64,000 nt of DNA. It comes from an uncultured Bacilli bacterium (GTDB lineage Bacteria > Bacillota_I > Bacilli_A > RF39 > UBA660). The notes under the pieces are model-generated. The model was not told the origin of the DNA and searched no databases. It saw only the letters and a program-made list of their open reading frames with translations. Positions 34,800-39,146 of this stretch are shown here, piece by piece. Made by a program: the position numbers and the translations under genes. Where the stretch lies: positions 54,185 to 118,184 of the forward strand of contig CAKOOV010000001.1 of the NCBI GenBank assembly GCA_934098435.1. The letters are read 5' to 3'. Position 1 is the first letter of the stretch. Every line of letters begins with the position of its first letter.

Positions 34800-37304
34800 A
34801 TGGTTAAATTGTTTAAAGGTTTAAAGAAATTATTTGACAATGAATATAAAGAATTATATAGATTTGGAAAACTAGCGGATCAGATAGATGCTTTAGATGA
34901 AGAAATGAGTAAATTATCCGATAAAAAATTAGCTAGTTATACTGATAAATTTAAAAAAAGATTGGAAGATGGAGAAACTCTTGAAGATATTTTGGTTGAG
35001 GCTTTTGCTGTTGTTAGAGAAGCTGCTTATAGATGTACTGGTATGAAACCTTTTTACTGTCAATTACTTGGTGGGCTTGCTATTCATTATGGTAATATTG
35101 CTGAAATGAAAACAGGTGAAGGTAAAACTCTTACTTGCGTACTTCCTGCTTATTTAAATGCTCTTGATGGAAGAGGGGTTCATATAGTTACTGTTAATGA
35201 ATTCTTGTCTACTAGAGATTCTGAATGGATGGGTAGTATATTTAAGTTCTTAGGTCTTACTGTAGGTCTTAACTTAAGAGAACTTTCTTTTAAAGAAAAA
35301 CAAGAAGCTTATAACTGTGATATTTTATATAGTACTAATAATGAACTTGGTTTTGATTACTTAAGAGATAACATGGTTGTAAAAAAAGAAAATAGAGTAC
35401 AAAGACCACTTAACTATTGTATTGTCGATGAGGTTGACTCTATCTTAATAGATGAGGCTAGAACTCCTCTTATTATATCTGGTGGAGTTATGCAGTCCGC
35501 TAATCTATATATTGATGCTGATAGATATGTTAAAAGTTTAAAAGAAAATGAAGATTACATTATGGATGAAAAATCTAAGGCTGTTAGTTTAACTGATGAA
35601 GGCAGTAGAAAGGCTGAAGAACATTTTCATCTAGATAATTTATATGATATTAATAATACAGCTTTAGTACATCATATTAATCAAGCACTTAAAGCAAATT
35701 ATGCTATGAGTTTAGATGTTGACTACGTTGTACAAGATGGTGAAGTTGTTATCGTAGACCAATTTACTGGTAGACTTATGAAAGGTAGAGCCTTCTCTGA
35801 TGGACTTCATCAGGCAATTGAAGCTAAGGAAGGTGTTAAGATTCAACAAGAAACTAAGACTCTTGCTACGATTACTTTCCAAAACTACTTTAGAATGTAT
35901 AATAAAATTGCTGGTATGACAGGTACTGCGAAGACTGAAGAAGAAGAATTTAGAAATATTTATAATATGTTTGTTATTCAAATTCCTACGAATAAGCCTG
36001 TTATTAGGGAAGACGCTACTGACTTACTATATCCTGGTAAGGAAGGTAAGTATAATGCTATTATAAAAGAAATTGAAGATAGACATGCTACTGGTCAACC
36101 AGTACTAGTTGGTACTATTGCTATTGAAACTTCCGAATTACTTAGTAAAATGCTTACTAAAAAGAAGATTCCTCATGAAGTATTAAATGCTAAGAACCAT
36201 GCTAGAGAGGCTGAAATTATTGCTCATGCTGGTGAAAAAGGTGCTGTTACTATTGCTACCAATATGGCTGGTCGTGGTACTGATATTAAACTTGGTGAAG
36301 GTGTTAAAGAACTAGGTGGTTTATGTGTTATCGGTAGTGAAAGACATGAATCTAGAAGAATAGATAATCAGCTTAGAGGTAGAAGTGGTAGACAAGGAGA
36401 TCCTGGTTTTACACAATTCTTTGTATCATTTGAAGATGACCTTCTTGTTAGATTCGGTTCTGATAGATATAAGGATATGCTTAAAAATCTAGGTTTTACC
36501 GGGGATATGGCTATTCAAAATAAGATGTTCTCTAAAACTGTTGAATCTGCTCAAAGAAAAGTTGAGGGTAATAACTTTGATATAAGAAAACAACTTCTTA
36601 ACTATGATGATGTTATGAATAATCAAAGAGAAATTATCTATGGTAAGAGAAATGAAATATTAGATAATGATTCTATTCATGAAACAGTTCTTAATGGTTT
36701 TAAGGAATATATTAGTGATATTGTTAATTCACATTTAGTGGAGAGTAATAAACTAAAAGAAAATGATTATAGTGAAATACTTGAAGCAGTAAATGAAAAC
36801 TTACTTAGAAAATATAGAATTAACTTATCTGAAATTAATGGTAAACATCCTAGTGAAGTTATTGATTTGATATATGAAAATGCTCTAAAGGATTATGAAG
36901 AAAAATTAGAAGATATTCCAGAAGAAGTTAGAGATGAGTTTGAAAAGGCTATTTCTCTTAGGGTTATTGATAATTACTGGATGGAACATATTTCTACGAT
37001 GAGTCATTTAAGAGATGGTATTGGTCTTAGAGGTTATGCTAATACTAGTCCTCTACAAGCATATACAATGGAAGGATATCAGTTATTTGATGAAATGCTT
37101 GCCAGAATTAATAAAGATATTAGTGTTTATCTATTAAAATCTGAAATTAGACAAAATATTGAGAGAAAACAAGTTGCTAAGAATACTGTAACAAATGATA
37201 GCAAGGACCATGCTAAGGTACAAAAGAAAAGTACTAAAGTTGGTAGAAATGATCTATGTCCTTGTGGCAGTGGTAAGAAATATAAACAATGTTGTGGTAA
37301 ATAG
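34800..37304 (+). CDS. secA: preprotein translocase ATPase SecA
   Basis: MKTGEGKTL Walker [20 protein letters not shown], and the C-terminal SEC-C zinc motif [15 protein letters not shown]. The ATG at 34800 abuts the AGGAG RBS, so the TTG at 34809 is an alternative start. Confidence 0.95.
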
Positions 37305-37356
37305 CTTGTTTTATAAAAGTTTGTGAGTTTCTCAATAGTCAAAAAAAGGCAAAAAA

Positions 37357-37453
37357 TTGTGCACATAACGCCATTTGTGCACATTTTGTGCTCATAAATG
37401 AAAAATATGTAATACTATCTATGCTTCATAGTGTTATATGTACTGGAAAAAAG
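37357..37453 (+). repeat. repeat module alpha (TGTGCACA boxes plus AATACTAT..CTTCATAGT..TACTG block)
   Basis: TTGTGCACATAACGCCATTTGTGCACATTTTGTGCTCAT...AATACTATCTATGCTTCATAGTGTTATATGTACTGGAAAAAAG. Homologous to 38174-38322. Confidence 0.7.
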
Positions 37454-37466
37454 TAATCTTTGAGTT

Positions 37467-37515
37467 TGGTAAGAATTATAAACAACGTTGTAGTAAATAG
37501 TTTGTTTTATAAAAA
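37467..37515 (+). repeat. displaced duplicate of the secA 3' end (tail copy 2, non-coding)
   Basis: TGGTAAGAATTATAAACAACGTTGTAGTAAATAGTTTGTTTTATAAAAA compared with secA 37271-37319: 5 mismatches in 49 nt by my alignment. No attached ORF. Confidence 0.8.
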
Positions 37516-37532
37516 AATAGGATGGTGAAAAT

Positions 37533-38117
37533 ATGAAAATAGTTTTAGGTTCTATGAATGTTTCTAAACAAAGGTCAATTTTAATTGCAATGAACGAATT
37601 AGGATTTGATGATATTTCTATTGTCCCTGTTAATGTTAATTCTTTAGTAAGTTCTAAACCTATTAATGATGAAACTTTAATAGGTGCAAAAAATAGAAAT
37701 CATGGTTTATATAATTATTGCATGGAAAATGATATTTCATTTGATTTACTAATTAGTATTGAGGGTGGATATGAACAGATAGATAATACATATTTTATTG
37801 TTACTTATGCATCAATATTAGACCAAAATGGTAATGAATTTATAGGAAAATCAAGTGGTCTTCAAATTACTGAAAGAATGTTTAATTATGTTAAAGATGG
37901 AAAATCTTTGAATAAAGTTATTGAATGTATTCTTGGTAATAGTAGTAATAAAAAAGATAATGGAATAACTGGATACCTAACAACTGGGTATTATAGGAGA
38001 GATATATTTGAATCCTCAGCAGTTATAAGTGCAATGGAAACTTTATTAAATTTTAAATCAAATTACAAAAAATTAGATAAAAAAATAGATAAAACACATA
38101 ACGTTGAAAAAATTTGA
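37533..38117 (+). CDS. inosine/xanthosine triphosphatase-like NTPase (YjjX/DUF84 family)
   Basis: MKIVLGSMNVSKQ N-terminus, VSSKPINDETLIGAKNRN, SIEGG and NGITGYLTTG blocks are colinear with E. coli YjjX motifs. Confidence 0.65.
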   Translation: MKIVLGSMNVSKQRSILIAMNELGFDDISIVPVNVNSLVSSKPINDETLIGAKNRNHGLYNYCMENDISFDLLISIEGGYEQIDNTYFIVTYASILDQNGNEFIGKSSGLQITERMFNYVKDGKSLNKVIECILGNSSNKKDNGITGYLTTGYYRRDIFESSAVISAMETLLNFKSNYKKLDKKIDKTHNVEKI

Positions 38118-38173
38118 AATAATTAGTAATATCATATATGATGTTATGCATTTTTGAATATGTGATGGGAACA

Positions 38174-38322
38174 ATGTGCACATTTTGTGCTCACAGACTA
38201 AAAAATGTATGGTAAAAATAATACTATATGTAACATTTATACCAATACTGTTCAGACCTTTTAAACCTTGAAAAACCTATAATACTATACATACTTCATA
38301 GTATCATATATACTGAAAAAGG
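38174..38322 (+). repeat. repeat module beta (homolog of module alpha, with an internal duplication or insertion)
   Basis: ATGTGCACATTTTGTGCTCAC...AATAATACTATATGTAAC...ATAATACTATACATACTTCATAGTATCATATATACTGAAAAAGG. Confidence 0.7.
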
Positions 38323-38329
38323 ATGAACT

Positions 38330-38371
38330 TGTGGCAGTGGACGCAAGTATAAACAGTGCTGTGGAAAGTAA
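38330..38371 (+). pseudogene. orphan SecA-type SEC-C tail (copy 3), no upstream ORF
   Basis: TGT GGC AGT GGA CGC AAG TAT AAA CAG TGC TGT GGA AAG TAA = [13 protein letters not shown]. The in-frame codons just upstream are GGA TGA ACT, so the frame is closed. Confidence 0.7.
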
Positions 38372-38411
38372 GCTCGCTAAGTCTTATAAATAAAGGACTT
38401 GCGAGCTTTTT
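38371..38411 (+). terminator. rho-independent terminator directly after orphan tail copy 3
   Basis: AGCTCGC(T)AAGTC ... GACTTGCGAGCT long stem followed by a T-run. Confidence 0.7.
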
Positions 38412-38547
38412 GCTACTTACAATTTTTAGGTAATTTTAACTTAAAAAAAGCGTTTAGATAAGTTTTTTTGCCCAAATCAGCCTTAAAATTTAAAAAGTGT
38501 GTTATAATTTTAAAAAATATGTTACAATATTATTAGGAGGAATTACT

Positions 38548-38811
38548 ATGGAGGATAAAAATATTATTTATAATAAAACAAATGATAATATAACACCAAT
38601 TGATACATCAGCAAAAGACTTTGCTTTTGAAGCTGATGCAGCAAATACAAGAAGACAAATGGAAGAAAGTGCTAGAGTTATGAATCAATCAATTGATACA
38701 TCAGCAAAAGATTTTGCTTTAAAAGCTGAATTAGAAAAAGCAAAAAGAGCACTACTAGAAGAGCAACAAGCTATGTATCAAGATATTGATGTAACACATA
38801 AAACTAGATAA
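38548..38811 (+). CDS. hypothetical 87-aa protein with an internal tandem repeat
   Basis: TTAGGAGG RBS. IDTSAKDFAFEADAANTRRQMEE and IDTSAKDFALKAELEKAKRALLEE repeat units. The ORF-track start at 38497 was replaced by the ATG at 38548. TGTTACAAT extended -10 upstream. Confidence 0.45.
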   Translation: MEDKNIIYNKTNDNITPIDTSAKDFAFEADAANTRRQMEESARVMNQSIDTSAKDFALKAELEKAKRALLEEQQAMYQDIDVTHKTR

Positions 38812-38824
38812 AAAATAAATTTAT

Positions 38825-38848
38825 GAATTCAGTCTTTGAATTCTTTTT
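38825..38848 (+). terminator. rho-independent terminator after the 87-aa gene
   Basis: GAATTCA-GTCTT-TGAATTC followed by T5. Confidence 0.6.
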
Positions 38849-39045
38849 ATTTTGATAACAAATCAAAAGATAATATATGAAAAAAATAATTGCTAAATCT
38901 ATTTTTTTAGATAAGTTATTAGATAAGTTTAAACTGCATTGTCAGAAAATTAGACATAACTTTTTTACAATTTCTGAGTAATTTATTAAAACTTATGAGT
39001 AAGAAAGACCAATTTTAAAGCAAGAAATTACAAGGCTGTTTTAAT

Positions 39046-39096
39046 GGTTTGCCTTGTGGATCTGGGAAAAAATATAAGAACTGCTGCGGAAAGTAA
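39046..39096 (+). pseudogene. orphan SecA-type SEC-C tail (copy 4), no start codon
   Basis: GGT TTG CCT TGT GGA TCT GGG AAA AAA TAT AAG AAC TGC TGC GGA AAG TAA = [16 protein letters not shown]. The frame is closed by a TAA 11 codons upstream of GLP, with no ATG in between. Confidence 0.7.
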
Positions 39097-39109
39097 GATA
39101 AATAAATAA

Positions 39110-39146
39110 AAGTAGATACATTTTATATTAAAGTGTATCTTTTTTT
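39110..39146 (+). terminator. rho-independent terminator directly after orphan tail copy 4
   Basis: AGATACATTTT / AAAGTGTATCT stem (one mismatch) followed by T7. Confidence 0.65.

Follow-up and report, generated by a model that had tools for sequence, protein, structure and literature searches.

In a stretch of DNA from an uncultured Bacilli bacterium (contig CAKOOV010000001.1), the 3′ end of secA recurs three times downstream of the gene, and these repeats very probably mark an attachment site for integrative elements that use tyrosine recombinases. The stretch, called the window here, is 64 kb long, and all unlabeled coordinates are positions in it. Its source is an uncultured, AT-rich (26% GC) lineage of gut Bacilli. 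The target gene, secA, occupies 34800–37304 on the + strand as an open reading frame (ORF) for 834 aa, with 98% identity to the secA of an uncultured Bacilli metagenome-assembled genome (MAG). An exact-protein look-up of the window SecA returned no record; the best genome match is a Hadza MAG with 98% secA identity, and its contig breaks inside secA.

The original prediction, made from the letters of the window and their translations, had placed four secA 3′ ends on the + strand, and a repeat finder, a degenerate codon pattern and an nhmmer profile found all four where it had put them. Tail 1 is the live secA end (37260–37304, +), which would serve as an attL-type core; the repeat is counted from a Pro codon, a boundary taken from 27 orphan tails of relatives. 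Tail 2 (37452–37500, +; nhmmer E 6e-4) is degenerate, is mutated in its 5′ core and has no ORF attached. Tails 3 (38327–38371, +) and 4 (39052–39096, +; the most distal) also lack a usable ORF, with the frame of the former shut just upstream by a TGA at 38324–38326 and that of the latter by a TAA, all as predicted. The repeat finder places 48-nt copies at 37256, 37452, 38323 and 39048 in one register (family D1), 69–77% identical to the live end. Tail 2 is 71% identical to tail 1 across these 48 nt, and its 3′ part plus 15 nt of downstream DNA (37467–37514) is 92% identical to 37271–37318. This recurrence had been predicted and is real, with 4 mismatches in 48 nt rather than the predicted 5 in 49. 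The codon pattern CGSG.KYK.CCGK gives three matches in the 64 kb against none in 100 shuffles, and the nhmmer tail profile recovered the four copies and nothing more. Tails 3 and 4 are also richer in GC (0.44 and 0.40) than the resident end (0.36), as had been proposed, and the window as a whole stands at 0.26.

The TGA that closes tail 3 was considered separately. TGA is a real stop in the window because code 11 leaves long genes intact, and an alternative code with TGA as Trp was rejected for the same reason; TGA ends 4 of the 56 ORFs. A selenocysteine or frameshift reading of tail 3, whose TGA sits at the first Cys codon, was also rejected, since the frame contains a TAA at 38232 with no start codon beyond.

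Putative arms, terminators and cargo between the tails

The four tails enclose three units (37305–37451, 37501–38326 and 38372–39048), none of which encodes a recombinase; in being flanked by att-like tails and free of integration and transfer genes, they agree with the definition of cis-mobilizable elements (CIMEs). The original prediction had described the window as free of recombinases. Neither of the two integrase families found at this site in relatives, termed type 1 and type 2 here, occurs in the 64 kb, and a Pfam check of the larger unassigned ORFs of the window turned up no integrase.

The first unit begins directly behind the live stop with a putative type-1 integrase-proximal (P′) arm (37305–37394, +), truncated before the integrase gene and ending ~130 nt short of the expected integrase start. 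It holds TGTGCACA at 37358 and 37376 and TGTGCTCA at 37387, and the number of TGTGCACA motifs in the window is above chance. In the related loci (designated by L numbers) the layout of the type-1 proximal arm is constant and consists of c..ataaaataagggtttgcgag, an A-run and three direct repeats of an 8–9-mer specific to the element, which is TGTTTGTAA in L099 and L175–L180, TGTCATC in L096 and TGTGCACA in L110. The arm of the window is laid out in the same way. The TGTGCACA module of the window is best read as a set of integrase arm-type sites. More generally, the repeated 8–11-mers (TGTGCACA, TGTTTGTAA, TGTCATC and TTAGATACC) are probably arm-type integrase-binding sites, and they adjoin integrases with Arm-DNA-binding domains.

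A short integrase-distal (P) arm of the AATACTAT class follows (37395–37451, +), 81% identical to 38269–38320. The P′ arm and the short P arm (37305–37451) constitute a 196-bp unit without cargo that is absent from L083 and L084. The second unit ends in a long type-1 P arm (38118–38326, +) with TGTGCACATTTTGTGCTCA at 38175 and ATAATACT repeats at 38218 and 38279. This arm aligns over its full length with the region 5′ of the second orphan tail of L113, sharing the 19-mer and the ATAATACT repeats, and the host secA of L113 is only 66% identical to that of the window. Arms of the AATAATACT type precede orphan tails in L098, L105 and L115, and the elements of L098 and L105 bear integrases. Exactly two copies of the 19-mer, TGTGCACATTTTGTGCTCA, are present in the window (37376 and 38175), with 0 expected, and tails 2 and 3 have a common non-coding upstream module (repeat finder families D3 and D6); both features go beyond the original prediction. 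Because of these matching arm homologies, the 196-bp unit can be read as a proximal arm joined at the 19-mer to a distal arm that has been shortened, and it matches what would be left over if the whole interior of an element were deleted.

The third unit has other ends. Behind tail 3 and its terminator lies a putative type-2 (phage-type) left-end module (38412–38470, +) with CTACTTACAATTTTTAGGTAATTTTA plus TTAGATAAGTT at 38454, and terminator and module together (38372–38500) are 87–91% identical in L098, L100, L102 and L147/L150. On the far side, ahead of tail 4, is a class A P arm (38880–39048, +) with TTAGATAAGTT at 38907 and 38919. It is 87% identical to the arm of L102 and 79% identical to that of L085, and it also stands 5′ of orphan tails in L109, L113, L100 and L147/L150. 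The motif TTAGATA[AC][CG]TT occurs three times in 64 kb, always within this unit and on both sides of its 87-aa gene; written as TTAGATAMSTT, it matches the TTAGATACC repeats in both arms of a prophage described below (L170/L169). In hosts that share the terminator module and the class A arm, the 3′ part of secA is 67–68% identical or barely alignable. Likewise, the YjjX gene of the second unit is 87% identical at the nucleotide level in L087, versus 71% for secA. Since arms and cargo are more alike than secA across hosts, they must have moved between species.

Strong rho-independent terminators had been predicted directly after tails 3 and 4 and none after the functional stop, and folding bears this out. 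The first terminator (38371–38411, +; −20.3 kcal/mol, z −5.7, U-run) appears to have been supplied together with tail 3. The second (39110–39146, +; −12.9 kcal/mol, z −4.4, U-run) follows tail 4, and the flank that is conserved among strains begins at it, ahead of a sigma-factor gene at 39194; the homology of L083 and L085 to this flank begins at 39096–39098. The 59 nt past the live secA stop fold no better than shuffles (z 0.0). A rule-based terminator scan found none, and as folding reveals two clear ones, the stem and loop rules of that scan were too strict.

One gene sits between successive copies in each of the two larger units, again in line with the original prediction. The first is an NTPase of the YjjX family (37533–38117, +; NTPase_I-T/YjjX, PF01931, Pfam E 4e-30), which stands directly 3′ of secA in L083, L084 and L087. 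The second encodes an 87-aa protein with an internal repeat (38548–38811, +; repeat finder family D2). It is 98% identical in L081, where it likewise follows an orphan tail and a terminator, and in the window a weak hairpin (38825–38843) comes after it. The repeat of this protein consists of two copies of ~31 aa (PIDTSAKDFA...; 38597–38748). An Rfam scan of 34–42 kb gave a single match, to SNORD71 and below threshold, which falls on this repeat and is probably due to chance.

Integrases and strain differences among relatives

Related loci were collected by a metagenome scan with the secA C-terminus, which returned loci of the same species (L081–L086, 90–100% identical over the C-terminal query) and loci of many related species (37–63%). 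A six-frame motif scan and an nhmmer scan then located 27 orphan tails in 15 of the related loci, all of them downstream of secA and on its (+) strand. The longest open stretch attached to any of them is 57 aa (range 14–57 codons), and most have no start codon. In 27 of 27 the similarity starts at the Pro codon (CCN-TGT-GG), and the first Cys codon is lost. Variation among the orphan tails falls mainly at third codon positions, as expected of coding ends that have been displaced or are portable. Extra tails within 6 kb of secA were found in none of the sampled cultured Bacillus, Clostridium and other genomes.

Comparison of strains of the window's species revealed different cassettes behind the same secA, which the original prediction had suggested looking for in related genomes. 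L083 and L084 do not have the 196-bp unit and pass from secA directly to YjjX. In L081 secA is followed by a different cassette of 146 aa and, behind an orphan tail, by the 87-aa unit; L085 carries other cassettes, and in L082 there are an integrase fragment and an island. The differences break at the tails. The sequences of L147 and L150 agree at 99.8% through the final base of tail 3, and beyond it an integrase is present in L150 only; L106/L107 and L115/L098 split at the end of the live tail. In strains of the same species the 300 nt before the tail are 89–100% identical and the tail 77–98%, with L081 and L082 at 99% in the former and 77% in the latter. Six different secA sequences have a tail that is identical from TGTGGAAGTGG on and that continues into the same element, which indicates that the element supplies the gene end. 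These comparisons place the probable exchange point at or near CC(A/T)TGTGG. In L081, L100, L102 and L106 a terminator-type sequence lies downstream of the live secA, and these sites could be either empty sites or type-2 left ends. Finally, five contigs (L001, L002, L086, L101 and L107) end inside secA or at most ~50 nt past it, which fits assembly breaks induced at the tail by repeats or strain variation.

Integrases stand at the secA stop in several of these relatives. Those of type 1 have the Pfam domains Phage_integrase, SAM_3 and Arm-DNA-bind_4 and start 170–225 bp past the stop in L096 and L099; fragments of them occur in L082, which belongs to the species of the window, and in L098, L105, L110, L113 and L150. 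The family is abundant according to a database search. One exact integrase, P0058, is indexed in 3,999 blocks of an assembly collection, and it lies 224 bp past secA in 6 of the 6 long contigs shown (1.1–1.4 Mb), which represent at least three gene neighborhoods. It is followed each time by ParA, ParB, a SpaA-type surface protein with a sortase, and a helicase-like protein (2,367 aa where complete). The element with P0058 (L174; L175–L180, positions 10001–21278) is very widespread in the gut and measures roughly 18 kb. Many public contigs with close relatives of P0058 are also ~18 kb, and the one examined (L174, 18,025 nt) begins at the tail, which suggests that contigs of this kind reflect assembly breaks at att repeats. 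In two independent contigs, L098 (7400–7450) and L105 (8920–8960), with DNA that is 86% identical, a frame change at one common A8 run (TTAAAAAAAAC) splits the type-1 integrase, and it could be due to programmed slippage, phase variation or a frameshift mutation that the two share.

Integrases of type 2 are only ~25% identical to those of type 1 and lie on the opposite strand. They adjoin the secA tail in L166 and L170–L173 from IMG/VR. L170 and L169 represent opposite ends of a single 40-kb IMG/VR contig, and each has a secA-tail repeat. At one end the secA tail, a terminator and two TTAGATACC repeats are followed by genes for integrase, CI-like repressor, Erf and replisome organizer. At the other, an endolysin and more genes come first, and after them two TTAGATACC repeats, an arm rich in GAGTGC, an orphan tail and a terminator. 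This contig is a complete prophage bounded by secA-tail repeats, and tails bound the elements of L098 and L105 in the same manner. Scans of IMG/VR with the N/H and Q variants of the tail pattern gave 13 matches, 7 of which are phage SEC-C proteins unrelated to the att site, and a search of INPHARED phages with tail and arms gave just one 37-nt match.

Probable integrative elements at the secA end and the alternatives

Taken together, these observations make it very likely that the secA 3′ end is an attB site for integrative elements with tyrosine recombinases and that the window holds an integrase-less tandem array at this site. According to the original prediction, elements that insert at the secA 3′ end bring a new end for the gene and shift the old ones, with their terminators, distally. 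The integrases, the prophage and the breakpoints of the relatives support that proposal, and the mechanism that it had left open can now be given as tyrosine-recombinase integration, with integrases at the secA stop in relatives. Direct observation provides the repeats, the homology of the arms to arms next to integrases, the relatives' integrases, the tail-bounded prophage, the polymorphism that breaks at tails, and the arms and cargo shared between hosts. No full-length SEC-C gene stands at the tail positions, the locus is variable, and the repeat is far above chance, all in agreement with what had been expected.

The attB site would extend from the Pro codon of the zinc-binding tail, which comprises the last 15 codons of secA, to just past the stop. 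An incoming element would bring its own copy of the tail, and recombination near the 5′ edge of the tail would join the host secA body to the element's tail, for some elements together with a terminator. The prior tail would come to lie behind the distal arm, at the opposite end of the element. Further integrations at any of the tails, followed by internal deletions, would then lead to a tandem array of tail-bounded units. Under this model the window would read secA joined to tail 1, type-1 proximal arm and short distal arm, tail 2, YjjX and long type-1 distal arm, and tail 3; it would continue from tail 3 with terminator and type-2 left module, the 87-aa gene, the class A arm, tail 4 with its terminator, and the flank. 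The location of strand exchange and the order of events are the parts of the model that we infer. The three units are best read as integrase-less, CIME-like remnants rather than as intact elements.

Several points weigh against this interpretation. There is no integrase in the 64-kb window, so nothing shows past or present mobility of these particular units. The circular junctions that the original prediction had suggested looking for in relatives were not recovered, nor was a free attP. The comparisons are all with metagenome assemblies, which break at tails (as in the five contigs named above), and some arrays are possibly mis-joined. In addition, the unit on the right of tail 3 and of the L081 orphan tail is 91% identical, yet the two tails differ over their 5′ two-thirds. 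This is not what one fixed exchange at the 5′ edge would produce, and either gene conversion between tails or another exchange point for type-2 integrases would have to be assumed. Lastly, YjjX abuts secA in three backgrounds and may be a long-standing resident and not cargo; its 87% identity across hosts, however, favors transfer.

A different and rather improbable reading of the units without an integrase regards them as working cassettes whose movement depends on an integrase supplied in trans, from another place in the genome or from a neighboring element, in an integron- or CIME-like economy. The secA tail and the arms would be their recombination sites. The arms of such units keep their repeated motifs and are 87–91% identical even where the host secA is ~67% identical or further apart, units of 1–3 genes without an integrase recur in many loci, and most orphan tails still encode an intact SEC-C tail. 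In L110 and L150 integrases follow distal tails, so any tail is usable as a target. However, a number of tails and arms are decayed (tail 2 of the window, a C-to-Y change in L081, a G-to-S change in L105, changes in L113 and a decayed tail in L085), integrase fragments and pseudogenes are common, the window has no integrase, and no circular cassette was seen. Recent transfer within intact elements, followed by decay, explains the conservation of the arms equally well. A broader form of the idea, which we would entertain only tentatively, is that the secA tail is a landing pad on which at least two unrelated integrase lineages have converged and that the 1–3-gene units form a working pool moved in trans across genera of small-genome gut Bacilli. 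If this were true, the cassette pool would be comparable in function to an integron, with an essential gene's end as its base. An integron proper was rejected as an explanation of the window: there is no integrase, the repeated site is a coding tail, and the units bring terminators.

The arrays might instead have arisen mainly through RecA-dependent homologous recombination or gene conversion, with the tail as a portable stretch of homology for the uptake of foreign DNA, and this we consider unlikely. The tails are indeed 45-nt near-identical repeats, some look mosaic (tail 3 versus the orphan tail of L081, for example), and the 196-bp unit resembles a deletion between two copies of TGTGCACATTTTGTGCTCA. 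Yet in 27 of 27 orphan tails the repeat starts at the same place on the left, the Pro codon, and the tails adjoin integrases and structured arms. Furthermore, 45 nt with synonymous mismatches make a poor RecA substrate, and this route requires a second homology anchor on the other side, of which none was seen.

That the extra tails are independent small genes with the SEC-C motif (PF02810) in ordinary decay is scarcely credible: the motif is present in many unrelated proteins and IMG/VR holds real phage SEC-C proteins of ~107–220 codons (L161–L165, L167 and L168), but no relative has an ORF at the tail positions (the longest open stretch being the 57 aa noted above), the DNA 5′ of the tails consists of conserved non-coding arms in a few recurring classes, and the left boundary lies at precisely the same point of the motif in every copy. 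The candidate was rejected for the further reason that the motif of the orphan tails is not at the C-terminus of an expressed ORF.

Integration into the secA end can be compared with systems in which both the process (e14 at icd, CIMEs at fda and tycheposon islands) and the standard mechanism are known; what appears to be undescribed is secA as the target. The original prediction knew of no element family that uses secA. Our literature searches likewise found no description of secA as an attachment site, an absence of evidence only, as their coverage is incomplete. When e14 integrates at icd of E. coli, the displaced end is left as a 163-bp pseudo-copy, icd′, on the other side of the element (PMC6379469). 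Of the classical cases, e14 is the closest in which the end of a protein gene is replaced: e14 and phage 21 at icd, like the elements at secA, are tyrosine-integrase elements in the 3′ end of a housekeeping gene that supply a replacement end. Synonymous differences between the live and displaced icd ends fit the same logic. In contrast to icd, the target at secA is a 45-nt SEC-C tail, at least two integrase families (~25% identical) are involved, and in the window three displaced ends stand in tandem without an integrase.

CIMEs have been defined, and explained by a three-step model of integration, decay and new integration into an att site at a gene end (PMC5704250). The units at secA are like the CIMEs and the ICESt1 and ICESt3 elements at fda of Streptococcus thermophilus in that units flanked by att sites and devoid of integration and transfer genes line up one after another at a protein gene's 3′ end. 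They differ in target gene and host clade, no conjugation module was seen in the sampled elements, and another element type at secA is a temperate phage. For mobilization in cis, the sole hint, an indirect one, is that hosts have arms and cargo in common. In the tycheposon islands of Prochlorococcus, successive integrations push older elements inward and leave partial targets, fragmented integrases and stranded cargo (10.1101/2020.12.28.424599). The secA site shares these island dynamics; unlike tycheposons, it lies at the end of a protein-coding gene rather than a tRNA gene, its phage-type integrases have an arm-binding domain at the N-terminus, and no tycheposon replication module was seen. 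Arrays of integrons are similar in having short units of one to a few genes, in one orientation and parted by a repeated recombination site. They differ in their IntI-type integrase, attI site and Pc promoter, none of which is present here, and the repeated site at secA is a coding end with arm repeats rather than an attC hairpin.

No new mechanism is revealed. An essential secretion gene joins the protein-gene ends that integrases target while the gene is preserved, and in these poorly known, uncultured Bacilli of the human gut the secA end is a hypervariable island site. The islands at this site appear to carry accessory genes, and one element that uses it is very common in gut metagenomes. 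The secA-tail repeats would also explain why public assemblies of these genomes break at secA. Tail repeats after secA offer a simple marker for mobile DNA and strain variation in these Bacilli.

Other variable sites near secA and in the window

Variation is not confined to the tails. A second variable spot lies just 5′ of secA (32958–34553), where a 481-aa ORF on the minus strand (33017–34462) has no Pfam match and is replaced by other DNA in L082 and L086, with both flanks aligning. Past tail 4 (39097–41763) come genes for the sigma factor, an HD-domain protein and a PAP2 phosphatase as well as a 242-aa ORF. Alignment with L083 and L085 covers the beginning of this block, in the sigma-factor region, beyond which their contigs soon diverge or end. 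L081 does not have 38920–41763, which comprises the class A arm, tail 4 and the post-tail block, and passes from the 87-aa unit to window position 41764. Because this gap reaches 41764, the variable region runs past the last tail.

The island behind secA in L082 (6855–12700; secA C-terminus 97% identical) opens with an N-terminal fragment of an integrase. Judged by eye from their N-termini, its further genes are what we take to be a response regulator, a histidine kinase and a D-Ala-D-Ala-ligase-like gene, and the set presumably resembles a van-type cluster. In L083 (3860–4220), the 3′ end of a 358-aa gene (...actgaacaRttagaaaaataaataa) recurs ~335 bp downstream, before the terminator that precedes the sigma factor; this gene, RhuM-like by eye, may be another case of gene-end duplication. 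Elsewhere in the window, the interval between polC and polA (57516–60642) holds a Fic-family gene (57516–58646) and a gene for a TraG/VirD4-like coupling protein of type IV secretion (59236–60642), which may be the remnant of a conjugative element.

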